A stretch of 62,909 nucleotides of DNA, counting the filler, from Basidiobolus ranarum (lineage: Eukaryota): the NCBI GenBank assembly GCA_040143965.1. It is 49 parts of 49 records of this genome, joined end to end, with 100 filler letters (N's around TTAATTAATTAA, not from the genome) between each part and the next. Parts side by side here need not be neighbours in the genome. Positions count along the whole stretch, not along the records: positions 18,058 to 19,245 come from JASJQH010006078.1; 48 more parts are not named here. One strand, given 5' to 3'. The notes beneath the pieces are model-generated. The model ran no database searches and was not told where the DNA came from. It was given only the letters and a program-made list of their open reading frames with translations. Shown piece by piece: positions 7,744 through 62,168 of the stretch. The translations under genes were made by a program, and so were the position numbers. Numbering within the stretch: the stretch's first letter is position 1; each line of letters starts with the position of its first letter.

Positions 7744-8930
7744 CTCATATTTTCAGCTCCTAGCTGACCCAAACTCCTATGCTGGATTTTCCAGTCCATC
7801 TCTTCGGCTGTGGCAATATTAACTTGTTCATATATTGGCCTAATAGAATGAAGTTTATAGAAGTTATTTTGCTTAGCTCCACAAGCTACGTAATTCCCTG
7901 TTTGATCCCTGATTATACAGCCATTTTGATCAAATTTATTGCTATATCTCTCAGATATAGCTTTACTTACTGATAACAAATTTTTTGCTATCCCAGGCAC
8001 ATATAGCACATTTTTCAGTGTCAAATACATGTCTCCAGAGACACCCCCACAATCCACTTCAATTTCTCCCACTCCCAGCGCTTCCAGTGGCCGGTCATCT
8101 CTCATATAAACCTTCTTATTTGTGTTAATTTTGAGTGTCTTAAATCAGTGTTTTTGATTAGAGAAATGCTGAGAGGCTCCAGAATTAATATACCACAACC
8201 TACAATCTTGTTCAGAGGTCACTGATAGGGCAGAAACAATTAAAACTTTATCTTTGGCTAAAACCTGATTTGCTTGTTCTGACTTCTCATTTTTGTTGAA
8301 ATTTCTTAAATTGCAATCTTTTGACTGTTGTCCTGATTCTTATTCCAAATTCTTACTTCTGAGGTGTTGATCCATTAGCTTTGCCACCACAAACTTCAAA
8401 GACAACTTGTCAGATCTTGCTTCCAAAGCTGTGACTAAGTTTGAATACTGTTCTATTAGACTACTTAGAAGACTCATAATTACATCTTCTTCATGTAAAG
8501 TTGCACCAATATTCCCCAGTGGTTTTGCTAAAGATCTCACATTTGATATGTGAGTAACCATGCTTTCAGACTTGTCCATCTTAATATTGAAGAATTTTTG
8601 TCTCAGAATGAGTCTATTAACAAGACTCTTTGCTTCGTGGCACTCTTCAAATATACTTCAAGCTTGATGAGAAGTCTTTGCAAATTGAGTATTCACATGT
8701 GGTGAATCCTTCAAACTTTGACAAATGACAGTAAAGGTCTTCTTGTCTCTTTTCTTGTAAGCTTCCAAAAAAATAGGGTCAGAAGTTACCTTTTCATCTC
8801 CAGAGAATACATCCCAAAGCTCCCTGTTTTCCAGCTTGATCAGCATCTTGAACTACCAGAAATTGTAATATTTTCCATCAAGCTTTTCAATACCTGAGTT
8901 AATAAAAGTGGTAGTTGTGATTTCTGTCAT
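7744..8930 (-). mobile_element. Ty1/copia gag (UBN2-type)-protease remnant
   Basis: IEKLDG.YYNFW, LVTALEAR, YINSGASQHF, NVLYVPGIAKNLLSVS. Confidence 0.9.
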
Positions 8931-9112
8931 GCTNNNNNNNNNNNNNNNNNNNNNNNNNNNNNNNNNNNNNNNNNNNNTTAATTAATTAANNNNNNNNNNN
9001 NNNNNNNNNNNNNNNNNNNNNNNNNNNNNNNNNCTGGACAATAAATAGTTATCTCACAAAGCTATTCACAACCACACTTTTCTAAAGTTCCTCCAAACCA
9101 CCCATATTTACC

Positions 9113-9670
9113 CAATACATTTAAGATCAAATTTTCAGTTCTTGATTCTAGAGCCATTACTAGGCTCTGAAACTTGTGTGGCAGGTTATTCGGGACTCTA
9201 ACTATGATAGCTAGATCAGTAGTAGGTACTTCAATGCATTCTATTTCATCCATCAAAATAGTGACTCTATTGATGAGTGATTTAACATCTTCTCCAGGCT
9301 TCATCTTTAGGTTAAAGAATTGTTTCTTAGAAACATCTTTTTAGCAGCAGAACTTGTTTGGTAGGTATCTTCCAAGGCTTTCCATACCTTCTTGGCAGTT
9401 TTAGCTCTTGAACATTGAATTAGCAATTTGTTTTTCACATTAAGACACATTGTGTTAATGGCACTTTGTTCTTTTTTAACTTGAAGTGAAACTTTGGTTA
9501 CAGATAGCTTTGCATTGTTTTCTTCTCCTACAACAGTGTCCCAAAGTCCTCTGTCTTGCTGCAGCATTTTCATTTTAACTTTCCTAACTTGATTATTGAT
9601 TCCATCCAATTTTTCAGAAGAGGGAAATATTCCATGAGTTTGAGAAGTAGACATTACAGAAAGTGCAAGC
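9113..9670 (-). mobile_element. Ty1/copia gag 5' region (family A)
   Basis: EKLDGIN..V.KVKMKML..RGLWD.V and LVMALESR, directly downstream of PBS and LTR. Confidence 0.88.
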
Positions 9671-9672
9671 TT

Positions 9673-9685
9673 GGGGCTCATAACC
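9673..9685 (-). promoter_or_regulatory. Primer-binding site complementary to the anticodon arm of initiator tRNA-Met (half-tRNA priming)
   Basis: Minus strand reads ...TTCAACA|GGTTATGAGCCCC; the complement GGGCTCATAACC is the fungal tRNA-iMet anticodon stem-loop. Confidence 0.85.
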
Positions 9686-10032
9686 TGTTGAAGTATTTGG
9701 GAGCCTGTTGGGAGTGGTTTGGAGAATTAGAGGAATGTGTGGGTTTCACTTATTGATTTATTATGTAGAAAGTTGACATTTTTAGTTTTGTCAAGATGTA
9801 AATAGATAACATGTAGAATATGTTAAGGAAGGTCCCAGGAATGTGTGTGCAAAGTTTGAGGCTTCTAGCACAAGTTTGAAGAATATATATATCTGAGAAC
9901 TTCTAATTTGGTAAAAATATTCAAAGTATATTTGGATTGAAAATAAAGGATAATATCTTAGTGAACTGTAAGGTAACTAAGTACTAAGCTATGTAACACT
10001 ATATAAGTGTTTAGGCAAAGCTAATTTCAACA
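9686..10032 (-). repeat. Copia LTR family A, 5' LTR (347 bp)
   Basis: TGTTGAA...TTCAACA termini; homologous to 32909-33256, 45342-45689, 47987-48333 and 52976-53321. Confidence 0.92.
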
Positions 10033-12342: not shown

Positions 12343-12717
12343 TGTTGAAGTTTATTGTCTTAACATATTTGTGATCCCTATCTTTATACACTTAACTAGT
12401 TCATATATCACATATAAGTTAGTTAACATTACTTAGTCAAATATCACTTAGCTGAAAATTGGAACATACATTACATATATATGTGAATAGTTTGAGAATT
12501 AGCAATTCCATATTGGAAATTTCAAACTTGTCAAAATTGCCCCAAAGATTGCTCATTTTACTCCCACAGATGTTCTGAACACAACCTCAATGTAGTTTTC
12601 TGTATTTGCACCAAAAATTATAAATGCTTTATTTCTGGACAATACATAGTTATCTCAAAAGCCATTCACAACTCCACTTTCCTAAAGTTCCTCCAAAAAG
12701 CCCATATTTTCACAATA
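12343..12717 (+). repeat. Copia LTR family B, 3' LTR (~375 bp) preceded by polypurine tract GAAAGGGAG
   Basis: PPT|TGTTGAAG directly after the pol stop; homologues at 15008-15379, 28358-28647, 29376-29543, 39626-39824, 19133-19245(-). Confidence 0.9.
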
Positions 12718-12901: not shown

Positions 12902-13960
12902 CTTTTTGAATGGTGAGCTTGCTGAGGAGATCTATATGGACCAGCCAGATGGATTTGTGGACCCAGAAAACCCTAAAAAAGTTTGCAGACTCTGGAAAAC
13001 ACTCTATGGCTTAAAGCAATCTCCAAGAGCTTGGAATAGCAAGATAGACACTTTTTTGGAAACACTCAAATTCCAAAAGAGTAATGCTGACTATAGTATC
13101 AACTTTAAATGCCAGATGAGACAAACCCAGTTTTATTAGCCTTATATGTAGATGATCTTGTTATAGCAAACAATGACTTGAAGACTTTGGAGAACACCAA
13201 ATCCAGCTTATCTGCTGAATTCAAAATGACTGATCTTGGTGAACTGACATACTATCTTGGAATCCAAATTAAGATAGATAGAACTACCAAAACAATAACT
13301 TTAAACCAGTCTAAGTATATCTTAGATATACTAAAGAAGTTTAAAATGGAAGAATGCTATCCAGTATCTACCCCAATGGAGACAAATCTTAACTTGACCA
13401 AAAATGGCTCTAATCAGATGTCCTTGGATTCAAATGAAAGCCAGAAATTTCCTTATCAATCTATGGTTGGTAGTTTGATGTATACTATGGTTGGAACACA
13501 GCCAGATATTGCATATTCTGTGGGAGTTATGTGCCAATATCTTCAAAATTGTGGATCTGATTAAATCATAGCAGTTAAGTGAATTTTCAGATATTTGAAA
13601 GGTACTGTGGATCTATGCTTAAAATACACCTATTCTGGGTCAAACTTTGATCTGATTGGATATTCAGATGCAAATTGGCAAAGAGATATTGAAAACAGGA
13701 GATCTACAATAGGATACTTATTTCTTTGCTGTAATGGAGCTATTTCTTGCAATTCAAAGAAACAATCTACTGTAGCACTTTCAAAAACAGAAGCTGAATA
13801 CATCGCTGCCTGTGAAGCAACAAAAGAAGCAATATGGTTAAGAAAACTCTGAACAGATTTGGGTTATTCTCAAAATTCATCAACTACAATATTTCAAGAT
13901 AATCAAAGTTGTATCAAATTAGCTAAAAATCCCACATTTCATAATAGAAGCAAAATAGTT
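12902..13960 (+). mobile_element. Ty1/copia reverse transcriptase-RNase H remnant
   Basis: [28 protein letters not shown]; frameshift and stops. Confidence 0.95.
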
Positions 13961-14190
13961 GCAAATGATTAGCTGAAAACTCAGGAACTATGGATCAACA
14001 CATGTGCAAAAAACATAACTCAAAACTTACACAATTACCACTTGAATGCTTATTTGTCACCTTTAAAATCCCTAGTCTCTTTGATATAATNNNNNNNNNN
14101 NNNNNNNNNNNNNNNNNNNNNNNNNNNNNNNNNNTTAATTAATTAANNNNNNNNNNNNNNNNNNNNNNNNNNNNNNNNNNNNNNNNNNNN

Positions 14191-14842
14191 CACAGAATAT
14201 GCAATATCTGGCCATGTTCCAACCATAATATACATCAAACTACCAACCATAGATTGATAAGGAAATTTCTGGCTTTCATTTGAATCCAAGAACATCTGAT
14301 TTGAGCCATTTTTGGTTAAGTTAAGATTTGTCTCCATTGGGGTAGATATTGGATTACATTCTTCCATTTTAAACTTCTTTAGTATATCTAGGATATACTT
14401 AGACTGGTTTAAAGTTATTGTTTTGGTAGTTCTATCTATCTTAATTTGGATTCCAAGATAGTACATCAGTTCACCAAGATCAGTCATTTTGAATTTGGCA
14501 GATAGGCTGGATTTGGTGTTCTCCAAAGTCTTCAAGTCATTGGTTGCTATAATAAGATCATGTTCATATAAGACTAATGAAACTGGGTTTGTCTTATCTG
14601 GCCTGAAGTAGATACTATAGTCAGCATTACTCTTTTGGAATTTGAGTGTTTCTAAAAAAGTGTCTATCTTGCTATTCCAAGCTCTTGGAGATTGTTTTAA
14701 GCCATAGAGTGTTTTCTGGAGTCTGCAAACTTTTTTAGGGTTTTCTGGGTCCACAAATCCATCTGGCTGGTCCATATAGATCTCCTCAGCAAGCTCACCA
14801 TTCAAAAAGGCAGCTTTAACATCCATTTGATGTACAATAAAC
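14191..14842 (-). mobile_element. Ty1/copia reverse transcriptase remnant
   Basis: [23 protein letters not shown]; catalytic YVDD mutated to YEHD. Confidence 0.95.
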
Positions 14843-15007
14843 TGTCACAATAAGGAACTGGACAAGGACTGGAATCAATGACAAGAGGCTAGAAGGCAGG
14901 AGAGTACTTGGGTGTAGACCACAAGACATAACAAGACAAGACTGGCCAAGGAAGATACTTTGGCAAGAATCTTTATTGATAACTGGTGTTGATAAGACTG
15001 AGGTCTG
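14843..15007 (-). repeat. Gypsy LTR (R/U5 part) nested in copia RT, itself interrupted by LTR family B
   Basis: TGTCACAATAAGGAACTGG... matches 16479-16668, 38641-38817 and 54039 onward. Confidence 0.85.
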
Positions 15008-15379
15008 TGTTGAAGTTTATTGTCTTTATCATATTTATTATCTCTATCTTTATACACCTAACTATTTCATATATCACATATAAGTTAGTTAACATTACTT
15101 AGTCAAATATCACTCAGCTGAAAATTGGAACATATATTATATATATATGTGAATAATGTGAGAATTAGCAATTCCATATTGGAAATTTCAAACTCGTCCA
15201 AATTGCCCCAAAAATAGCTCATTTTACTCCCACAGATGTTTTGAACACAACCCCAGTGTTAGTTTTCCGTATTTCCACCAAAAAGTATAAATGCTTTATT
15301 TCTGGACAATAAACAATTATCTAACAAAGCTATTCACAACTCCACTTTTCTAAAGTTCCTCCAAACAGCCCATATTTTC
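15008..15379 (+). repeat. Copia LTR family B
   Basis: TGTTGAAGTTTATTG start; homologous to 12343-12717. Confidence 0.9.
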
Positions 15380-17957: not shown

Positions 17958-18057
17958 NNNNNNNNNNNNNNNNNNNNNNNNNNNNNNNNNNNNNNNNNNN
18001 NTTAATTAATTAANNNNNNNNNNNNNNNNNNNNNNNNNNNNNNNNNNNNNNNNNNNN

Positions 18058-18500
18058 TCTTCCTGTAAAGTTGCACCAATATTTTCCAGTTATTTTGCCA
18101 AAGATCTCACATTTGCAATATGAGTAACAAGGCTTTCAGACTTTTCCATCTTTACACTGAAGAATATTTGTCTGAGAAAGAGTCTATTAGCAAGACTCTT
18201 TGCTTCATAACACTCTTCCAATATAGTCCAAGCTTGATGGGAAGTCATTGCATATTGAATATTCACAAGTTGTGAATCTTTCAAACTTTGACAAATGACA
18301 TTAAAGGCCTTCTTGTCTCTTTTCTTGTAAGCTCCCAATAAAGAAAGGTCAGAAGGATCCTTTTCATCTCCAGAGACTACATCCCAAAGCTCCCTGTCTT
18401 CCAGCATGATTTGCATCTTGAACTTCCAGAAACTGTAATTTTCTCCATCAAGCATTTCAACACTTGAGTTGATAAAAGGGGTAGTAGTGGTTTCTGTCAT
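18058..18500 (-). mobile_element. Ty1/copia gag N-terminus
   Basis: VEMLDGENYSFWKFKMQIMLEDRELWDVV; close paralogue of 8340-8930; degenerate PBS at 18520-18532. Confidence 0.92.
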
Positions 18501-18558
18501 GCTGTAAAGGTTAGAACATGGGGCTCATCACTAGTTGAAATTATTTAGGGAGAAATAT

Positions 18559-18631
18559 TGGTCTGGCCAGGATTTGAACCTGGGACCTCCTTCACTCTAG
18601 CAAGGTGCTCTAACCACTGAACTACCAGTCC
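18559..18631 (-). tRNA. tRNA-like cloverleaf (73 nt, anticodon AGA, short variable loop); likely pseudo or element-borne
   Basis: GGACTGG TA GTTC AGTGGTTA GAGC A CCTTG CTAGAGT GAAGG AGGTC CCAGG TTCAAAT CCTGG CCAGACC A: acceptor 6/7, D 4/4, anticodon 4/5, T 5/5 pairs; intact A and B boxes. Confidence 0.8.
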
Positions 18632-18795
18632 TTGTATGCTATGCCTATATTGCTAGGGAACATTAACCTAGTCTGTCATTGTATGGTACTTTGGTATTTC
18701 AGCTATACAAGCAACTGATTGGCCTTAGACTTTGTGTTCAGATGCAGTCACCATACTCCATACTTTCCTCTCTGGGAATTACTGCTATACCACAA

Positions 18796-19132
18796 CCCTA
18801 ACAAAAATAAAACCGATTTGATCTGGATCAAATCCACCCTTTGAAATAGCAAAACCATTGGAGAACCGTCACAATATTGTTGGCTTGCATTCTGCCAGGG
18901 ATTTTGATGATGGGACAGCGGTTTCATGATGGTATCTTAGCAATATTCATACATGTTAAAATATTGATCCTCAAATTTGGCATGCGTGGTTCAATATCCA
19001 GCAATTTTTGCAAATATAAAATTTTCAAATGGCAAATTACTGGGTTTACTGCTGTAGGAATTTAATTAATGTGCATGCCTTTATTTAGATATTTTAGGCT
19101 TTGTATTCCAGCCATAATGAGAATCAAAAAAT
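18796..19132 (+). mobile_element. DNA-transposon terminal region starting CCCTAACAAAAATAAAA
   Basis: Same terminus near 49959 and, degraded and inverted, at about 23660-23738; 18990-19130 also matches about 49610-49750. Confidence 0.65.
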
Positions 19133-19345
19133 ATTGGGAATATATGGGCTGTTTGGAGGAACTTTAGAAAAGTGGAGTTGTGAATAGCTTTGTGAGATAA
19201 CTGTTTATTGTCCAGAAATAAAGCATTTATACTTTTGGTGGAAATNNNNNNNNNNNNNNNNNNNNNNNNNNNNNNNNNNNNNNNNNNNNTTAATTAATTA
19301 ANNNNNNNNNNNNNNNNNNNNNNNNNNNNNNNNNNNNNNNNNNNN

Positions 19346-25682: not shown

Positions 25683-26448
25683 GNNNNNNNNNNNNNNNNN
25701 NNNNNNNNNNNNNNNNNNNNNNNNNNNTTAATTAATTAANNNNNNNNNNNNNNNNNNNNNNNNNNNNNNNNNNNNNNNNNNNNTAACATATTCTACACGT
25801 TAGTTTGCTTACATCTTGACAAAACTATAAATGTCAACTTTCTACTCAATATATCAATAAGTGAAAACCACCAATTCCTCTAATTCTCCAAACCGCTTCC
25901 AACAGGCTCCCAAATACTTTAACAGATCACAGGTAGTAATTGCTAGTTGAAAACCAGGATGATTTTTATTTGATAACATATGGCTCCTATTTATACTTTT
26001 CTGATGGTAGAAATGATTACAAATGAGGATTTCCGGAAAGTTCCAGAGAATTCTGTTGGTGGGAATCTGGGGTTATGATATCACCATAAATCATAAGATT
26101 AGTAATCTATGGAATGTTCTGGAAGGTTATAGAATAATCCGGAAAGTCATGGAATCTTCCAACAAAATCAAGCTTTGATTGGTCAAAACTCAATCAGTCA
26201 TCAACTATTCTAAGAATCATATAGAATGTTCTGGAAGCTAGTAGAATTTTCAAGAAAATAATAGGACTGATGTGGGTTAATACTTTTGAATCTCAAATAA
26301 TAGAGGATAATACTTATGGTGTGATATAATTAGCTAGAAAATATGGCTAATCCAAATATCGATAGAAAGATAGAAATTGTGCAAAAGTAATGATACAAGT
26401 TTGAAGTGGAAATAAGCCAACCTGCCAGTGAGTAGCAATGCTACCCCA

Positions 26449-28357: not shown

Positions 28358-28647
28358 ACTTAGTCAAATATCACTTAACTGAAAATTAGAACATATATTA
28401 TATGTTTGTGTGAACAATGTGTGAATTATCAAGTCCATATTGGAAATTTCAAACTTGTCCAAATTGCCACAAAGATAGCTCATTTTACTCCCACAGAAGT
28501 TCTGAACACAACCCCAGTGTTAGTTTTCTGTATTTCCACCAAAATGTATAAAAGCTTTATTTCTGGACCATAAATAATTATCTCACAAAGCTATTCACAA
28601 CTCCACTTTTCTAAAGTTCCTCCAAACAGCCCATATTTTCCCAATAC
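28358..28647 (+). repeat. Copia LTR family B (3' part); another copy starts near 29376
   Basis: Homology to 12343-12717. Confidence 0.85.
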
Positions 28648-32215: not shown

Positions 32216-33400
32216 CAGATCAATTGTCCCCTTCAAGTATCTGCAAATCCACTTAACTACTGCATATTGCTCAGATCGTGGGTTTTGCAATGTTGGCTGC
32301 CTACTCTCACTGCAAAAGAGATATCGGGCCGGGTTCCAGTCATAGCATATATCAAACTACCTACCATAGATTGATAATGAAACTCAGGGCTTTCAAATGA
32401 CATATTCCAAGCCATATTTGGCCAGTTTCCATCATTTTGGATGGGATTTTTGACTAGTTTCACACCTGGATCCATGGGAGTTGCAACTGGCGTACAATTA
32501 TTCATCCTGTAATGTTTGAGAATGTCTGAGATGTATTTAGATTGATTCAGAGTGATAGATTTGCACAATATATCTATATGGATCTGCAGGCCTAAAAAAT
32601 ACATAAGTTCATCTAAACTGGTCATCTTGAATTGGACTGATAGATCTCTTTTAGTAATCCTGAGAGCTTCATCATTATTGGTAGCTATAATCAGATCATC
32701 TACATATATGGCAAGTATCACCTTACTGGCCTTATCTGTCTTAAAGTAGATCCCAAAATCCACCATACTCTTTTGGAAATCAAGTGATTCCAAGTATATA
32801 TCTATCTTAGTGTACTTGGCCCTGGGTGTTTGTTTAAGTCCATAAAGTAATTTTTGTAGCTTACACACATCCTCAGGATGCTCAGTATCCATAAAGCCAT
32901 CTGGTTGATGTTGAAATTAGCATTGCCTAAGCACCTATATAGTCATATATAACTTAGTAATTAGTTATCTTATAACTCACCAAGTTAGTATCAATTACTC
33001 TCAATTGGAATTTATTTTGAATATTTTTACCAGCTTAGAAGTTCTCAGATATAAAGAATTTTCAAACTTGTGCTAGAAGCCCCAAACTTTGCACACATGT
33101 TTCTGGGACCTTCCTTAACATATTCTATACATTAGTTTGTTTACATCTTGACAAAACTATAAATGTCAACTTTCTATTCAATAAATCATTAAGTGAAAAC
33201 CACCAATTCCTCTAGTTCTCTAAACCACTTCCAACAGGCTCCCAAATACTTTAACAGTTGATCCATGAATATATCCTCTTCCAAGTCCCCATTCAAAAAA
33301 GCAGTATTAACATCCATTTGATGGATTTTTAAGCTGTGTTTTGCTGCTACTGCTAGTATGGTTCTGATGGAGTTAAACTTTGCTACAGGAGCAAAAGTTT
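32216..33400 (-). mobile_element. Ty1/copia RT remnant split by a solo LTR
   Basis: TFAPVAKFNSIR, HQMDVNTAFLNG, IFMDQ|PDGF, LYGLKQ, IYVDDL, GTRPD. Confidence 0.95.
32909..33256 (+). repeat. Solo LTR family A (348 bp) with perfect 5-bp TSD GTTGA
   Basis: GTTGA|TGTTGAAATT...TTTAACA|GTTGA. Confidence 0.95.
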
Positions 33401-34785: not shown

Positions 34786-35612
34786 TGCTGTGTATAGTCT
34801 CTCAAATTTTTCCCTAGCAGGGTAGAAATTTTGGCTGAGTGTATGTGCCTCTATTGAGAGTCTCTGTGATTTAAGCAAAGTGTAGAGCATGTATTCATCT
34901 GTTACTTCTCAAAGGCAAGGATAGTTTCTGGTGGTCCAATTGGCTATGTTTCTTTTCCTGTTGCAAATTCCCAAAGGTCTTTGTTTTTTAGCACCATATG
35001 CATCTTGAACTTTCACAGATGAAAGTCTTCCTCATCAAACTTTTCTGTGGATGCAAATTTATTAGAGATAGTAATTGTAGACATTCCTTTTACAGCTAGC
35101 TTGGGGCTTGTAACTAGATAAAAGTATTTAGGGGATTTGGAAGTATTTTTGACAAGATTTGGATTAGTGCATTAGACACTTCAGTTTTATCCAATTAGAT
35201 ATGTCCTATTATAGTTTACTATGAAATAGGACTATTGAATGTGCTTGGATGATAACAAACATTTTTTTTAAGCATGGGTGAAAATTTGGGATGATTTGGA
35301 GAGGTTTTGAGAAAATAGAGAAAATTGGTAAAAGTGATCTAATTGATATTTCAATCAATTAGTGCAATAAGCACACGTTTTAGAATAACAGAATAGAGTG
35401 CTAGATAATCGGAATATGAATAAACCAGCTACTAAATAATGGGTTGCCATTTACCTAATTTCAACAGAAAATTTGTAAAAGTGATCTCATTGATAGAAAT
35501 ATGAATTAGAGCAATAAATGCACATTTTGAAAGGCAGAATTGAGTGCTAAGTAATCAGAATATGAATAAGCAAACTACTCAATATTGAGTTGCTATTGAC
35601 CAAGTTTCAATA
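34786..35612 (-). mobile_element. Copia family C gag start, PBS (~35103-35115), 5' LTR (to 35466) and adjacent older LTR fragment (35467-35612)
   Basis: TEKFDEEDFHL.KFKM; GGGGCTTGTAAC; ~146-bp diverged tandem ending TTTCAACA / TTTCAATA. Confidence 0.8.
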
Positions 35613-36070: not shown

Positions 36071-37255
36071 GGACCATTAGTTGTTATTGGTCTTGATATA
36101 TTCACTCAACTTGGCTTCAATATAGGAGGACTACCAGTCTCTTATCCTGGATTCACCAAATCTCTACCGCCTGATTCTGATCACAAACCAGAAGTAATCT
36201 CAGAAACTCCTGAACAAGAAGAATTATCACCTTCCTTCCAAGCATATGCCAACTCTGTCAAAGTAGCCATTCAACCTGCTATTGAGAGAAACCAGAAAAT
36301 CCCAAAGAAGAGCTTTTGCACTATACCAGAGTCTCTTGTTACCTTAGAAACACCACCTGGAGAAACAACTTGGAGAAGACAATATCCAATTCCACATACG
36401 CTACAACCTTTAGTTGATGAAGTAGTACAGAAATGGGCTGATAATGGCATTATCACTCAAGCACCTGTCAACACTACCTTCAACAGCCCTTTGACTTTAG
36501 CACCAAAGAAGGATTCAGAAGGAAATCTTACGCTAAAAAGACCCTGTTTAGATCCAAGACCTCTAAACAAACTACTACAGGATGATAAATTTCCTATCCC
36601 TAGGATCAATGACATCTTTTCCTCACTCTCAGGAGCACAAGTATTTTCTAAATTAGACTTAAAAGATGCTTATCACCGATTTCAGATTCACCCAGATCAC
36701 CAACACAAGACAGCTTTCACATGGAGAAACATGCAATGGATGTTTCAAGGAGCACCCTTTGGACTCAAGACTTTGACCAGCAAGTTTCAAAGAGTTATGA
36801 CTATCATTCTCAAAGATGCTAGCTATGCCTTAGTGTTTGTTGATGATGTTATCATTTTCTCAACTGATAGAGCTGATCATGCAACCCATGTTACTGATAT
36901 TATCAACCGTCTTACTTCTGCTGGACTTATCCTGAATGCTGAAAAATGCAGCTTTGCTCGCCTTAAAATCAACTTACTTGGTTTTATTGTTACTCCTACA
37001 GGCCACCAATTAGATCCTTTCAAGTTAGTCAACATTAAGGATTGGCCTAAGCCCACCACCGCTAAACAACTTCAACACTACCTTGGAGTCTTCAACTATT
37101 TCAGGGAACATATGCCACTTTTCTCAACTCTAAGTGCACCACTTGATTCCTTACGGCATAACCCAAATCTACCCTCAGTTTGGACCAAAGTACATGATCA
37201 AGCCTTTGATTCACTGTGCACCATGCTTCCCCAAGCTCCTACTCTATCTTATCCT
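36071..37255 (+). CDS. Uninterrupted Ty3/gypsy pol segment (protease end, RT, connection) of a distinct family
   Basis: Frame open across the contig: VVIGLD, RRQYPIP, CLDPRPLN, SKLDLKDAYH, APFGL, FVDD, LGVFNYFR. Confidence 0.93.
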
Positions 37256-43775: not shown

Positions 43776-44690
43776 ATATAGATTTTTTCAAACTTGTGCT
43801 AGAAGCCCCAAATTTTGCACACATGTTCCTGGGACCTTCCTTAACATATTCTACATGTTAGTTTGTTTACATCTTGACAAAACTATAAATGTCAACTTTC
43901 TACTCAATAAATTAATAAGTGAAAACCACCAATTCCTCTAATTCTCCAAACCACTTCCAAAAGGCTCCCAAATACTCTAACAAGAAGATCATAACTAGGT
44001 ATACTTTTTCTATGGTTAAGGAGCCATAACTTGAATAGTAAGAAGCAACCAACCATAGAACTTTCTACTACAGAAGCAAAGTGTATAGCTGCCTCTGCTA
44101 CTACACAAGAAGCAATGTGGTTAAGGAAGTTATTCACAGGCTTAGGTTACATGCAAAAAAGTGCTGTTACTTTATTTGAAGATAGTCTAAGTTGCATTTC
44201 ACTAGCTAAATATAATTGAACTTGTCTATTGCCTTACCGAAGAAATGATTGCTGACACCTCAATCAAATCTTGAGCTAAAGCACAATTGGCATTGTTAAT
44301 ATATAAGCAGGATTTAAGCAAAATAAAAAGTAAGTATTTAACAGGAATGTTGAAATTAGGAATATAGCAACCAATTATTTAGTGGTTAGTTTACTTATAC
44401 TCTGATTATTTATCACTCAATCCTGCCATTCAATAACATGTGCTTATTACTCTAATTGATAGAAATATCAACCAGATCACTATCAGCAATTTTGACTAAT
44501 TTCTCAAAACTTCTCCAAATCACCTCAAATTTTTGCCCATGCGTAACAGGCATGTTTGTTAGGAACTAAGCACATCCAATAGTAAACTATAAATAAGACA
44601 TATGCAATTTAATAAAACCTAAGTGTCTAATTCACAAATCCAAATCTTGTCCAAAACACTTCCAAATCCCCTAAAAACATTTATCAAGCC
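43776..44690 (+). mobile_element. LTR family A end nested in a copia RNase H remnant, followed by a family C 3' LTR from ~44348
   Basis: SKKQPTIELSTTEAKC; TGTTGAAATTAGG LTR start. Confidence 0.8.
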
Positions 44691-45058: not shown

Positions 45059-45689
45059 TCTTCCAAGGCTTTCCATACCTGCTTGGCAGTTTTAGCTCTT
45101 GAACATTGAATTTGCAATTTGTCTTTAACAATAGGACAAATTATGTTAAAGGCACTTTATTCTTTTTTAACCTGGAGTAAAACTTCAGTTTCAAATAGCT
45201 TTGCATTGTCTTCTTCTCCTACAACAGTGTCTCAAAAACCAAACTTGGTAATTGATTCCATTCAATTTTTCACAAGAGGGAAAAGTTCCATAAATTTGAG
45301 AAGTAGACATTACAGAGAGTGCAAGCTGGGGGCTAATAACCTTTTAAAGTATTTGGGAGCCTGTTGGAAGTGGTTTGGAGAATCAGAGAAATTGGTGGTT
45401 TTTGCTTGCTGATTTATTGAGTAGAGAGTTGACTTTTATAGTTTTAAAAAGATGTAGGCAAACCAATATGTAGAATGTATTGAGAAAGGTCCCAGAAACA
45501 TGTGTGCAAAGTTTGGGGCTTCTAGCACAAGCTTAAAGAATCTGAATATCTGAGAACTTCTAAGTTGGTAAAAATATTCAAAGTAAATTCCATTTGAGAA
45601 TAATGGGTAATATCTTAGTGAAATACAAGATAACTAAGTACTAAACTATACCTGACTATATAGGTGTTTATGCAATGTATGTTTCAACA
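45059..45689 (-). mobile_element. Copia family A gag start, PBS (45329-45341) and 5' LTR (45342-45689)
   Basis: Colinear with 9370-10032; PBS GGTTATTAGCCCC. Confidence 0.88.
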
Positions 45690-46056: not shown

Positions 46057-47986
46057 ACTTTCTTAGTGCCTGTACAGTAGAGTTACCAATTCAAAATCAG
46101 AAGTGTTACTTGCAATAGTAATTACAGATATTGCAATATATGAGTAGGCATAGATTTATGAAAGTGATGCCACCAGTCATGCAGATCACTCTTCAGTGTG
46201 AAATGGATTTTATCAAACTAGGTCTATTCATTGCCACTCAANNNNNNNNNNNNNNNNNNNNNNNNNNNNNNNNNNNNNNNNNNNNTTAATTAATTAANNN
46301 NNNNNNNNNNNNNNNNNNNNNNNNNNNNNNNNNNNNNNNNNAAGTTAGCAAATCTATAAAGATAATTAATATTCAAAGATGAGGTTCTTTCCCAAAGTAT
46401 ACCTGCAGTAGTTAATCTACAAATGTTGTGAATTCATTGACAAATTTGTTAATGGTGACAGTCAGTAAATCAGCACTTATAATACCCTCATGAAAGGATC
46501 AAATGAATATCAACTATAAGTGCAAGAGTAAGAAAGTCCATGTTTAAGAAGTTTCCCACCTTAATAACAAAGGAATTGACCAAGGCTAGAAGAGAAACAA
46601 ATGATATATTGGTAGCAAAAATCAACAATCTTTGTCTTCACTCTAGGGAATTTGGGTAGCAAATCCTGAAGAAATGATAGAATGAGGCTTACTGCAAGGC
46701 ACAGTTGTCAAAAATGATGTAATTAAAAAATGGGTCAACATTGCTGAATATCCACTCAAACTATGAATGTAGAGCAAGTATCAGTATTTTATGCCATACC
46801 TCTAGCTGGAAAGAAGGAAGCTTGGTTAAATATTCAGCTTAAAGGCTGGGATGGGTTCTCTCAAAGAGTTCTCTAGAAATGAAAACAATTACATCTTAGT
46901 ATCTGGTGCCCATTACACACTCTTGAGCCATCACTACATTTCTTCATTCTAGCAGTACCTGTGCACAGAACTAAGTAGATTGATCTTTATATATACATCT
47001 CATGTCACATAACCATCTATTCTTAGTATATCATTGCTATCACTATTGAACTCTGAAGCAATGGCAATGATCTTGATTGTAACTTACAATGCTTATTATA
47101 CTTTGCATGTGTTTTGTTACTTCTGTCCTTCCTCACTTTTATAGGTCACTTTGTGTTGATATTTACTCAAGGTTCTATAATACAAGTGTAAATATTTTAC
47201 CTATGTATGTATTATACACAATTCAATGGTACCGAATATGTCAGCTCATGCTGGAAACTATTAGCAAAAGCAATGACATTCTGTATAAATCCTGGATCAT
47301 ACGCTTGTAGCAAGAGGTCATCAGTTGGTCAAATGTTGTTGTATCATAATCGTAAGTTTAATGATTGTATAAAGTTGGTGTAAAGGTTAACACACAAATA
47401 AACCAAAATGAAAGTTGGTTAGTATGTTGATTAATACGCACTAGCAAACAAAAATCTGACCGAAGCAATCCATTTGTTGCCACCAAGTTGCAAGTTACTA
47501 TGCCCATTCTCAGCAAGCCTGATANNNNNNNNNNNNNNNNNNNNNNNNNNNNNNNNNNNNNNNNNNNNTTAATTAATTAANNNNNNNNNNNNNNNNNNNN
47601 NNNNNNNNNNNNNNNNNNNNNNNNCAAGAGGTGTAAGCGCTTATACCATCATACAATATTACAAATTAGTGATGACCTTTATTGTGAGTAATTTGTTATT
47701 AACATTGGCACTGATGATCCTGTCTGCGTGAATAATGTGAACTACATTACTTTACTCATAGTTTTGAATGGTAACACAGTTGGAATTCCAACTTTTGATG
47801 TACTAAATGTATACCAACAAATGAATATATATTCTATTAAATTACACTATTATTGAGAAGGGCAGCATAGGTAAAACCTATTTACCATCACGAAAATATG
47901 ATATATCAAAATAGAAAAAATCATCAATCTATACAGATAGTTAATTCTGAGAGACTGACATGCCACAGATCCTTGACAACTGTTAG

Positions 47987-48333
47987 TGTTGAAATCAGCG
48001 CAGCCTAAACACCTATATAGTTATAAATAGCTTAGTATTTAGTTACTCCATGTTGAATTAATATATCGCCCACTACTCTCAATTGAAATCTACTTGTAAT
48101 ATTTTTACTAACTAAAAGTTCTCAGATATATAGATTTTTTCAAACCTGTCTAAGAAACCCAAACTTTGCGCACATGCTTCTGGGACCACTTGTAGAATAT
48201 TCTACACATTTGCTTACTTGCCTCTTGGCCAAACTATAAATGTCAACTCCCTATCTAATAAATCAAAATGGAAAGCCCACGATTTTTCTAGTTCTCCCAA
48301 CTGCCTCAATCAAACTTCCAAAATGCTTCAACA
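47987..48333 (+). repeat. Older solo LTR family A, TSD GTTAG/GTCAG
   Basis: TGTTGAAATC...TTCAACA with a 4/5 matching TSD. Confidence 0.88.
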
Positions 48334-49063
48334 GTCAGCGGGTAAATCCATGCTGTAGATCTGTGCTGCCAGTTTGATCAAGGGTGATACTGTGCAAACA
48401 AGATATATAATTGTTCTTCACAAATTGCCGCTGATGTCCATGTGTTGTGCATAGTTAAGATAGCTTGTTGCTGGCAAAATTCAACAAATGGCAAATTTAA
48501 AAACCCCCTCCGGTAGCTACAAACAATCCACTCTAATACCTTTACACACTGAGACTATAATACATGTTCTATTCTTACTTTACTAAAGGAGTAGATGTTG
48601 TTGTTGGACAACATATTAAGTGTTGCGATTTGCATTGCCTAAGCATCAATAGAGTCATATCTAGCTTATTGTTCAGTTATCTTGTATTTCTTCAAGATAT
48701 TACCCATTATTCTCTATCAGAATTTATTCTGAATACTTATACAAACTTAGAAGTTGTCAGATATATAGGTTCTTCAAACTTGTGCAAGAAGCCCCAAACT
48801 TTGCACANNNNNNNNNNNNNNNNNNNNNNNNNNNNNNNNNNNNNNNNNNNNTTAATTAATTAANNNNNNNNNNNNNNNNNNNNNNNNNNNNNNNNNNNNN
48901 NNNNNNNAGTTGAGTTGCAATAGGAATCTTTATTATCTTACTATGATACAGGGTAGAATATCTAGTTAAGGAAAGGATAAAGAATATGGTGTAGTTTTGG
49001 ATGGTGCTAAGGCTAGAAGCTTTTTCAATAGGGGGAAGGGTTGCTTATATAAAGAAACAGCTT

Positions 49064-49144
49064 AGAATAAATGCTATGAATTGGTGGCTGAGAATAAATG
49101 CAATGAATTGGTGGCTGAGAATAAATGCTATGAGTGGGTGGCTT
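49064..49144 (+). repeat. 3 x 27-bp tandem repeat
   Basis: AGAATAAATGC(T/A)ATGA(A/G)T(T/G)GGTGGCT(G/T), just after TATATAAA. Confidence 0.9.
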
Positions 49145-50190
49145 AGCATTGAAGTGCTAATAAGATTACTAATAAAGCAGCTGTGGCTTTGAAACTTAGA
49201 ACACATCAGCATCAAGTACTGTCGCAGCTCTGTGCAAAATTTGAAGAGAATCCATTAGCTGGTTCAAAAGTTAGCACTAATTTTGTGAGCATCCTGAGAT
49301 CCTGAATTCCTGTGTTCTGAATATATGCTAGTGTGGATTTTTGTGTTGGCAATTTTGAGATGATTGTAGCTCCAGCAATATTTGATCAAATCTTATGATT
49401 CTTGCATGGTTGTAAAGCTCTAATTCCAGAAATTCTGATTGCAGCTGGAATTGTTGTAATAAAGTAGGTATTGATGTGACTATGAGTGATTGAATATTGT
49501 TGTTCTTTTTCTTGATCTGTAAAATATTAAAAGATAGCAATAGATAATATTCTTCCTGCTTATTATGTGCAAGATATGATTGGAATATTTCCAACACTAC
49601 AGCGTTATTCAATATCCAGCAATTTTTGCAAAAATATAATTTTTGAATGGCAAATTACTGGGTTTACTGCTATAGGAATTTGAATTAATACGCATGCCTT
49701 TATTTAGATATTGTAGGCTTTGTATTCCAGCCATAATGAGAATCAAAAAATGCAAGAATCTAGTTATGTTTAGTCTCTACATATGCACATATTTGACTGA
49801 TTAGACATAATCCACCAATTACATAGTAAGTAAATAGTTGAGCAAGGTTCAACCAAAACACTGTCAAGATAATCAACTTCAAAAATGGCTACTTTGCCCA
49901 CTATTCAACACCCTCCATAGAAAATATGGATAGAATTATTACAAGAAGGGAATTGCAGGCCCTAACAAAAATAAAATTGCTTTGATCCGGATTGGATCCA
50001 CTCTCCAAAATAGCAAAACTGTCAGAGAACCGTCACAATATTGTTGGCTTGCATTCTGCCAGGGATTTTGATGGTGTGATGGCGGTTTCTNNNNNNNNNN
50101 NNNNNNNNNNNNNNNNNNNNNNNNNNNNNNNNNNTTAATTAATTAANNNNNNNNNNNNNNNNNNNNNNNNNNNNNNNNNNNNNNNNNNNN

Positions 50191-52756: not shown

Positions 52757-53321
52757 AATTAGCTAAAAATCCGATGTTTTGTAATAGAAGCAAACATACA
52801 GATATTAAGCATCACTTCATGAGAGAGACTGTAGAGAATAAGTTTATTGACCTAACTTATTGTTCTACAGAAAACATGATTACTGATATATCAACCAAAC
52901 CATTAGCTATACAGAAATTTGAGAAATTTAGACCTTTATTAGGATTTGTTTATATGACTATTTGTTGAGGAAGAGTGTTGAAATTAGCTTTGCCCAAACA
53001 CCTATATAGTCATATATAGCTTGATACTTAGTTATCTTAAAATTCACCAAGATATTATCCACTATTCACAATTGGAATTTAGTTGGAATATTTTTACTGA
53101 CTGAGAAGTTCTCAGATATGTAGATTTTTCAAAGTTGTGCTAGAAGCCCCAATCTTTGCATACATGTTCCTGGGACCTTCCTTAACACATTCTACATGTT
53201 AGTTTGTCTACATCTTGCTAAAACTATAAATGTCAATTTTCTACTCAATAATCAATAAGTGAAAACCACCAATTCATCTGATTCTCCAAATCACTTCCAA
53301 CAGGCTCCCAAACACTGTCAC
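52757..53321 (+). mobile_element. Copia RNase H end, PPT (GAGGAAGAG) and family A 3' LTR (from 52976)
   Basis: RSKHTDIKHHF, TDISTKPL; PPT|TGTTGAAATT. Confidence 0.9.
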
Positions 53322-60934: not shown

Positions 60935-61628
60935 GGTTTATGAAATGGTGCTGGGATTAACTTGCGGGATGTTTATTTCTTTGACCAGAAATGAAGTGTT
61001 TGTACTTTTTGGTGAAAATACAAAAGGTAGGCTATGAGGTTAAGTTTATTAAAGCACCCGTGGGAGTAAAATGAACCATAAAGGGGTCATATTAAACCAC
61101 CTTGAAATGTTAGGTATGACATTGCTGATTCTTAGATGATGCAAAAATATACCAAATGAATGTTCTGGTTTTCAGCTAAGTGCTATTTGATCAAACAATT
61201 ATAACCAACTTTGATGTGATACCAAGAATAGTTAGGTGTATACAGATAGTGATTACAAATATAGCAAAGGCAATAAACTTCAATAACATGCCAATCTACA
61301 ATGGAGCAACATTGAAATTAACATGATCTAAGCATCTATATAATCTTATGTAGCTTAGTATTTGGTTCTTCTATATTCTACAAAGATATAACTTACTATT
61401 CTAGAGAAGAATTTACTTACCAGTTTGTGTTGAAATTAGCATTGCCTAAACACCTATATAGTCATATATAGCTTAGTACTTAGTTATCTTATATTGAACT
61501 AAGATATTATCCATTATTCTTGATTGGAATTCACTCAGAATATTGACACCAACTTACAAGTTCTCAGATATATAGATTCTTTTAACTTGTGCTAGAAGCC
61601 TCAAATTTTGCTCACATGTTACTGGGAC
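60935..61628. repeat. LTR pile-up: old family B (minus, to ~61285), old family A start (~61310), younger family A (61428 onward)
   Basis: Homology to the LTRs defined above. Confidence 0.75.
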
Positions 61629-62168
61629 NNNNNNNNNNNNNNNNNNNNNNNNNNNNNNNNNNNNNNNNNNNNTTAATTAATTAANNNNNNNNNNNNNNNN
61701 NNNNNNNNNNNNNNNNNNNNNNNNNNNNATGAAACCAGTGTAAATTAAATACTAGTATCTTTTTAGAAATTAGAGATAATACAATTAAGCCAAATATGTA
61801 CTACCATCCCGAAACCCGGGAAGCTACCACCTCGAGGAGTAACTCTTGATCGACATTATGCATTTCATCGTACAAATCGAAGTTGTAAAGTATACGTCGA
61901 CATACATTGTAAGTGATAAACGATTGGTTCAGATATTACGTTAATTATGGACTAATTCCACCGTCACTCTAAAGGCCAAATAGTGATAGTCAAATATGTT
62001 TAGGTCGAAAGAAAATATAGTATCATTTTGAATTTGAATCAGAGTTTCCGGATATTACAATTCTATTTACATTATTATAGAAAGTACCTTTTAAAGCACT
62101 ATATTGATCTCTCTTGATCATGATTTTCTATGAAAAATGGTGGAACAATAATTACCTCTATACCCGAT

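Follow-up and report, generated by a model that had tools for sequence, protein, structure and literature searches.

The window analysed here is a 62.9-kb stretch (62,909 nt) of Basidiobolus ranarum DNA that consists of 49 separate contigs of 1181–1191 bp each, arranged in order of decreasing size and joined by identical 100-nt linkers (N44 + TTAATTAATTAA + N44). A periodic palindromic 'repeat' seen along the window corresponds to this linker and is an artefact of the joining. All ORFs of at least 130 aa with a Pfam match are derived from transposable elements, so that the window amounts to a sampling of repeat contigs without a genomic placement; the Pfam matches comprise copia gag, reverse transcriptase (RT) and integrase, gypsy RT, RNase H and integrase, and a Harbinger-type DDE transposase, and GC content in the window is 30–38%. 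The locus described below lies on a contig of 1188 bp (18058–19245) bounded by linkers at 17958–18057 and 19246–19345. This contig is the sole stretch physically joined to the tRNA-like module that it holds, and its neighbours in the window are unlinked to it.

The contig carries the 5′ part of a copia gag gene on the minus strand (18058–18500), beginning with an ATG at 18500 and running for 443 nt (147 codons) to the contig end, with one TAA at 18092. Matches to Retrotran_gag_2 (E 8e-25) and DUF4219 (E 1.3e-9) confirm the gag start that the first-pass annotation had placed at this ATG, with the tRNA in sense orientation to it. A paralogous copy of the same family is present on another contig (7744–8933, minus strand), where it encodes gag and protease interrupted by four in-frame stops, and the two genes are 87% identical at the nucleotide level (18058–18500 versus 8488–8933). 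The contig of the paralogue stops 3 nt upstream of its gag ATG and shows no LTR. In viral contigs, seven stretches fitted the gag pattern and none was confirmed. The nearest match to this gag is 46% identical, and its atlas neighbours are copia gag clusters labelled Streptophyta.

Upstream of gag, and in sense orientation to the copia element, lies a tRNA-like module of 73 nt (18559–18631, minus strand) that forms a class-I cloverleaf with the anticodon AGA. ARAGORN called it as Ser(aga) and Rfam matched it to RF00005 over model positions 1–71 (53.9 bits versus a gathering score of 29, E 8.4e-9), so that the tRNA fold proposed at 18631–18559 is real. It is the sole tRNA identified in the window by either ARAGORN or Rfam; lowering the ARAGORN thresholds to 85% gave five additional weak calls in the window, none of them within an LTR copy. 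Sequences at the A-box (TAGTTCAGTGG, 18624–18614) and B-box (GGTTCAAATCC, 18580–18570) positions are as previously annotated, and the motifs TAGTT...TGG and GGTTC are both present, with the box-A motif TRGCY of the Helenus elements discussed below off by one base. The module encodes no CCA. Alignment to the covariance model revealed non-canonical pairs at 3:70 and 31:39 and a short variable region, and the loss of 2 of 21 pairs fits the age of the copy, whose gag is 87% identical to the paralogue. Thermodynamic (MFE) folding by itself gave nothing notable (z = −0.04), and the case for the fold is made by the covariance score and not by the folding energy. Serine tRNAs belong to class II and carry a long variable arm. 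Isotype and anticodon therefore disagree in this module, as a serine anticodon (AGA) sits on a body with a short variable arm, and its description as a non-canonical serine tRNA is upheld by both the ARAGORN anticodon and the covariance alignment.

The flanks of the module bear none of the usual marks of a retroposed or independently transcribed tRNA sequence that had been reported as missing, namely a poly-A tail, an oligo-T terminator or target site duplications (TSDs). Reading the sequence downstream of the tRNA revealed no A-tail or A-run, and the first run of four or more T's lies 81 nt downstream (18477–18474). No direct repeats above chance were found around the module, shared words of at least 6 nt occurring in 80% of shuffles; the longest flanking word (8 nt) is found upstream of the tRNA and at the gag start, so that the LTR end and primer binding site (PBS) described below would lie between its two occurrences. 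Three conventional identities for the module were rejected. Against a tRNA-derived SINE, ATATTT is all that lies between the tRNA and the conserved LTR-end block, no above-chance TSD accompanies the module and the window contains no other copy. A functional nuclear tRNA gene is contradicted by AGA on a short arm, the broken pairs 3:70 and 31:39, and the distance of 81 nt to the first T4. A bacterial or organellar tRNA was ruled out, as the tRNA pattern had no match in 185,579 prokaryote genomes; the same scan also returned no matches in viral contigs and metagenome contigs.

All features listed by the first-pass annotation were found on the minus strand at the positions it gave. They follow one another as a stretch of 164 nt, the 73-nt tRNA fold, a 6-nt trailer with T3, a 20-nt LTR terminus, the PBS and gag. 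The 26 nt after the tRNA (18533–18558) are composed of ATATTT, as the T3-containing trailer, and a conserved 20-nt block that ends in TTTCAACT (18540–18533) and constitutes the LTR terminus. Directly after the LTR is a degenerate PBS (AGTGATGAGCCCC, 18520–18532, minus strand), the complement of which can be read as the CAT anticodon stem-loop of initiator tRNA-Met (tRNA-iMet), and the gag ATG lies 32 nt after the LTR. The earlier reading of the 26 nt as an LTR 3′ end is borne out by comparison, as the block is common to two other copia families of the window. Positions 18519–18550 matched 35102–35133 (blastn, 81% identity, E 0.007) and 9672–9703 (82%, E 0.049), in both cases collinear with gag, and a MAFFT alignment supports an LTR-end/PBS block common to three copia families of the window. 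In one of these families (famA), the LTR is 347 nt long, extending from TGTTGAAATTAGC at 10032 to ...TTCAACA at 9686 with the form TGTTG...CAACA, and its limits are exactly fixed by at least eight copies in the window with different flanks. The famA 5′ LTR is directly followed by an intact PBS, GGTTATGAGCCCC, at 9685–9673 (a variant occurs at 45341–45328), whose complement forms a G-rich stem, a CTCATAA loop and CC, giving an anticodon loop with CAT borne by a G:C-rich stem. We take this combination to be the mark of initiator tRNA-Met, and it identifies the type of PBS.

The same arrangement was found beyond the window. A metagenome scan with the gag alignment recovered 14 loci at 26–50% identity, and when their upstream sequences were read by eye, ...CAACA and a PBS of the same type were present just upstream of gag in 12 (the exceptions being L007 and L008). 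As this layout is shared with famA and the metagenome relatives, 18552–18520 (CTCCCTAAATAATTTCAACTAGTGATGAGCCCC) can be read as the LTR 3′ terminus and a degenerate half-tRNA-iMet PBS, which bears out the half-tRNA PBS of the first-pass annotation. No tRNA was found at any of the 14 related gag loci, or in the other LTR families of the window even at 85% ARAGORN thresholds. Comparison with the sister family famC gave z = 4.1 over the last 110 nt of the LTR, falling to 0.7 once the last 26 nt were removed; similarity to famC is thus confined to those 26 nt, and 6 nt lie between the end of the tRNA and the LTR's conserved terminal block. A SINE body or tail would not fit into this gap, and the argument previously made against a SINE insertion holds on this ground.

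Sister LTRs showed some resemblance to the tRNA by eye, before shuffle tests were applied. Decayed versions of the tRNA in these LTRs (famA, R1 and famC) were rejected by the shuffle tests, which gave z values of −1.0 to 1.2 without the last 26 nt. Use of the LTR tRNA as the element's own primer was likewise rejected, the longest exact complement with the PBS region being 7 nt, located in the leader and at chance level.

The candidate 5′ LTR as a whole spans ~263 nt (18533–18796, minus strand), starting with (G)TTGTGGTATAG and ending with TTTCAACT; its 3′ end is anchored by the comparisons above, while we infer that its 5′ end lies at 18796. The sequence GTTGTGGTATAG occupies 18796–18785 and is followed by 164 nt up to the tRNA, in line with the ~165 nt previously estimated. 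This U3-like part (18632–18795, minus strand) has no copy elsewhere in the window, blastn and nhmmer finding nothing significant in the rest of the window and the famA LTR profile giving no match either. At the 5′ edge, the sequence GTTGTGGTATAGC after 18796 loosely resembles the famA LTR start TGTTGAAATTAGC, and the termini read (G)GTTG...CAACT versus TGTTG...CAACA in the sister family, so that both depart from TG...CA, a difference compatible with decay, with a single LTR visible. Searches for further copies of 18504–18795 among the 48 other contigs (blastn with word sizes of 9 and 7, and nhmmer) found none beyond the 32-nt LTR-end/PBS block. The number of tRNA-bearing LTR copies in the window is therefore one, and the contig ends inside gag.

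Two repeats outside the copia element occupy the remainder of the contig. An unclassified repeat ('BA', 18796–19132, plus strand) abuts the LTR start, is unrelated to the LTR and stops at 18796. Two of its blocks match the contig at 48908–50090 (85% and 93% identity) with identical outer boundaries, and the copy on that contig stops at the same base as the BA edge at 18796. This edge had been annotated as the end of a DNA transposon; the repeat boundary is confirmed by the shared copy, but the DNA-transposon label is not, since no terminal inverted repeats were found for BA (inverted-repeat matches at 9 of 40 terminal positions). Next to BA lies the 3′ end of an LTR from a different copia family (R1, 19132–19245, minus strand), with four further copies in the window (9034–9117, 12604–12717, 15271–15379 and 28532–28646). 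The three copies with a visible flank end in ..AATA and have differing flanks, and that at 15271–15379 reaches the contig end. R1 matches the famA LTR profile weakly (positions 244–328, E 0.11).

LTRs that carry tRNA-derived sequence are already known from Helenus (TRIMp3), a group of TRIMs (terminal-repeat retrotransposons in miniature), as described by Kojima (2024, Biology 13:119; PMC10886601). Helenus forms dispersed multi-copy families, in which each element has two LTRs that both hold the tRNA-like sequence, together with a polypurine tract and TSDs of 4–6 bp (PMC10886601). Helenus has been reported from rust fungi, some Agaricomycetes, six animal phyla and Selaginella, with LTRs of 120–323 bp in non-coding elements of 311–1263 bp (PMC10886601). 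Anticodon and isotype usually disagree in these elements, and Ser-AGA calls are given for several fungal families (PMC10886601). Fungal Helenus elements are described as having 5-bp TSDs, mostly a tRNA-iMet anticodon-loop PBS and a PBS region in common with Copia, as being mobilised by copia and, in one family, as sharing 198 bp of 5′ internal sequence with a Copia; self-pairing of the LTR tRNA with the PBS was, as here, negative (PMC10886601). According to the argument of the same source, autonomous partners have to rely on Pol II and would not be expected to have the tRNA-bearing LTR in common with Helenus; its screen kept only elements of <1000 bp, and it adds that 'not a few' of the LTRs in Repbase look like part of a tRNA (PMC10886601).

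The present locus resembles Helenus, as described there, in having a tRNA with A and B boxes inside the LTR and in sense orientation, a mismatch between anticodon and isotype, a PBS abutting the LTR and a link to Copia, and its LTR of ~263 nt falls within the Helenus range of 120–323 nt. It differs in its interior, at least 443 nt of gag following the LTR (gag and protease in the paralogue) where Helenus has a short non-coding interior, the two being compared here by description only. Helenus/TRIMp3 is the closest known kind, and the present element, judged from one decayed copy on a short contig, would count as a coding variant of it and not as a member. The idea of a tRNA-bearing LTR is thus already known, which lowers the novelty of the locus (PMC10886601); what is unusual here is the joining of such an LTR to a gag-coding copia body. 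Searches of the open-access literature turned up no description of a coding LTR retrotransposon whose LTR carries a tRNA.

Other known systems share individual features with the locus. The first-pass annotation compared it with Cassandra alone, in which 5S rRNA is carried in the LTRs of plant TRIMs, and a 5S fragment likewise occurs in nemertean TRIMs of the Ajax type (PMC10886601). The likeness to both holds insofar as a small Pol III-transcribed RNA gene module sits inside an LTR, but Cassandra is not the sole precedent, as tRNA-bearing LTRs are known from Helenus (PMC10886601). Cassandra also differs in carrying 5S rather than tRNA sequence and in its conserved Pol III terminators, a defined R of 18 bp and its lack of coding capacity; Rfam gave no match to 5S rRNA in the window even at E values up to 5. 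Cassandra and Ajax are proposed to have originated by retro-copying of a small RNA into an LTR, with replication then copying it to both LTRs (PMC10886601). A tRNA-iMet anticodon-loop PBS is described for Ty5, Drosophila copia, Copia-28_PHord, fungal Copia and Helenus (PMC10886601, section 3.6). Ty5 of yeast, Drosophila copia and Copia-28_PHord, which are primed by initiator tRNA-Met truncated at its 3′ end, resemble the present element in that this anticodon stem-loop PBS comes right after ...CAACA, with gag a few tens of nt further on, but they are not reported to have a tRNA-like module in their LTRs. Finally, tRNA-derived SINEs (SINE2) have in common with the module a tRNA-like head, an internal Pol III promoter and a non-canonical anticodon/isotype combination, but differ in that here there is no body, tail, TSD or further copy in the window, and an LTR terminus and PBS follow the tRNA.

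The copia copy that bears the tRNA is dead, as shown by the stop in gag, the two broken tRNA pairs, and the degenerate PBS and LTR terminus. We tentatively favour the reading that its tRNA module was a heritable component of the 5′ LTR, that is, that a Helenus-type (TRIMp3-type) LTR was joined to a gag-coding body of the Ty1/copia type, and would put this at a little short of an even chance. As far as the sequence in view can indicate, what speaks against heritability is that there is one copy, with no second LTR, polypurine tract (PPT) or TSD in view, and that the tRNA region appears unrelated to other LTRs (z ≤ 1.2). The single copy could also reflect a private secondary insertion, in which a tRNA retro-copy (the cDNA of a pre-tRNA, or a truncated SINE head) entered an LTR that was already integrated, was not transmitted and has no function. 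Such an event would agree with the lack of a tRNA in the other window LTRs and at all 14 related loci, with the lack of relationship between the tRNA segment and other LTR families, and with the ATATTT right after the discriminator, which resembles a pre-tRNA trailer with the remnant of a U-tail. However, it would be expected to leave traces that are missing here (a TSD above chance, an A-rich tail or a SINE body), the 57 kb of repeat contigs hold no other tRNA-like repeat that could have served as its source, and the sense orientation and position beside U5 fit the Helenus layout; we consider a private insertion unlikely.

Both remaining explanations are given a low probability. The tRNA contig belongs to a set of 49 unplaced repeat contigs of ~1.19 kb, copia pieces are oddly juxtaposed, in opposite orientations, on several of the neighbouring contigs, and the LTR-end/PBS block is common to several families here, so a short-read mis-join at this block could have attached a copia gag to a tRNA-bearing repeat such as a Helenus-like TRIM; Helenus and Copia are themselves reported to share the PBS and 5′ internal region (PMC10886601). 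The shared block is, however, only ~80% identical between these families and therefore too divergent for a k-mer join between them, and a chimera presupposes a TRIM, not seen here, whose leader is nearly identical; that TRIM would then be this copia's own Helenus relative. We consider a chimera improbable. The complete cloverleaf, A and B boxes and good covariance score, the lack of an encoded CCA and the 164 nt of upstream sequence unique in the window would also suit an ordinary nuclear tRNA gene or pseudogene situated beside a copia whose 5′ LTR had shrunk by deletion to its last 20–26 nt. This arrangement is the least credible of those considered, being very improbable given that AGA on a short-variable-arm body is an isotype mismatch of the kind seen in TE-derived tRNA-like sequences, that two pairs are mismatched and no terminator of T4 or longer occurs for 81 nt, that the deletion would have had to stop, by coincidence, 6 nt past the tRNA, and that the 5′ edge at 18796 looks like the beginning of an LTR.

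If the tRNA was indeed a heritable part of the LTR, it may have entered when a tRNA-derived RNA (a pre-tRNA or a minimal tRNA retro-copy rather than a full SINE) was copied into the R/U5 region of an ancestral LTR, after which ordinary LTR replication would have carried the module along. Alternatively, template switching could have occurred between the co-packaged RNAs of a Helenus-like TRIM and its copia partner, a plausible route because TRIM and partner share the LTR end, PBS and leader. In a short TRIM, the module could define R by serving as an internal promoter for Pol III. The gag-bearing form would differ in its transcription, as Pol III would be expected to stop at the first T-runs and to yield at most a ~160-nt RNA of tRNA, U5, PBS and leader. 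T-runs in gag number 1 versus 2.6 expected on the tRNA contig and 4 versus 5.1 expected in the paralogue, including a T7, and as they are not depleted, the gag family shows no sign of adaptation to Pol III. The suggestion that the tRNA acts as a Pol III promoter for full-length gag-pol RNA was accordingly not sustained, since transcription by Pol III through these T-runs could not yield the full-length RNA; that RNA would have to be initiated by Pol II in the 164-nt U3-like part. The tRNA could then either ride along passively in R/U5 or be a TFIIIC/Pol III site that plays no part in replication, and in the coding element it was most likely a passenger.

A heritable tRNA would make this element a link between autonomous copia and the tRNA-bearing miniature Helenus elements that copia mobilise. 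The birth of Pol III-driven TRIMs could then be explained by capture of a tRNA in a coding element followed by internal deletion, where the route proposed so far is insertion of a SINE into an existing TRIM. Such LTRs would also be a further source of false tRNA gene calls in repeat-rich genomes. A more far-reaching proposal, that a gag-pol-coding copia lineage carried the tRNA in both LTRs and was the progenitor (by internal deletion) or recombinant partner of Helenus-type Pol III TRIMs, is possible but somewhat doubtful. Were such a lineage to exist, it would go against the view that tRNA-bearing LTRs are never shared by autonomous partners, and would imply that a genomic RNA made by Pol II can tolerate, or use, an R/U5 of tRNA shape immediately beside a half-tRNA primer site. 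By comparison, a private insertion or mis-join would reduce the locus to ordinary repeat debris.

The RT sequences of the window give some indication of the wider affinities of its elements. For copia RT, the best match was 82% identical, the named matches of highest identity (48–49%) were from oomycetes and plant matches were mostly 32–47% identical, while the nearest named relatives of the gypsy RT were from the Mucoromycota, at ~50% identity.

The window (1-62909) comprises 49 contigs, each of 1181-1191 bp and sorted from longest to shortest, which are separated by 100-nt linkers (1192-1291, 2483-2582 and so on to 61629-61728) made up of 44 N, TTAATTAATTAA and a further 44 N. It is a pseudo-molecule built from unplaced contigs, and the neighbouring position of contigs within it carries no meaning.

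Within the window, a copia LTR family of 347 nt (TGTTG...CAACA) was abundant, with copies at 9686-10032 (minus strand), 32909-33257, 52976-53316 and 47984-48334; shorter, partial stretches of it lie at 43776-43982, 61428-61628, 25784-25925 and 48621-48807. Copies representing 5' LTRs are followed by an intact primer-binding site (PBS) whose sequence is the complement of the anticodon stem-loop of initiator tRNA. Several members of the family look like solo LTRs. Another copia LTR family was represented by five copies of its 3' end (19132-19245, 9034-9117, 12604-12717, 15271-15379 and 28532-28646), one of which splits a copia gag and one of which adjoins a reverse transcriptase (RT) fragment. 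Its terminus reads ..AATA instead of the usual ..CA in all four copies with visible flank; the copy at 15271-15379 reaches the end of its contig.

The contig carrying the tRNA-like module also holds an unclassified repeat of ~337 nt (18796-19132), adjoining the candidate LTR, which on the plus strand starts with CCCTAAC, ends with A6 and has no terminal inverted repeats. The two halves of this repeat recur in contig 48908-50090 (at 49602-49751 and 49960-50089), in reversed order relative to 18796-19132 and with 208 nt between them, as if there were two tandem copies or the ~337-nt unit lay within a longer repeat.

Among the 14 metagenome loci related to the copia gag lineage (L001-L014), two versions of the half-tRNA-iMet PBS were present: ..TTATGGGCCC.., found in the majority, and ..TTATGAGCCC.., found in L002 and the same as in the window. 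The version presumably follows the initiator tRNA of each host. In the copia family closest to that of the tRNA-bearing element, an LTR contains a tandem duplication of 146 nt with 78% matches (35319-35610).

Contigs 12902-14090 and 14191-15379 have ~620 nt of copia RT sequence in common as inverted copies that are 95-98% identical, with arms of 412 and 204 nt, and may be duplicate or haplotype contigs placed in opposite orientations. Contig 36071-37255 (plus strand) is a single open frame of 395 codons from end to end encoding a gypsy-type RT (Pfam RVT_1), whose nearest named relatives are from Mucoromycota fungi at ~50% identity; this gypsy element may be young.
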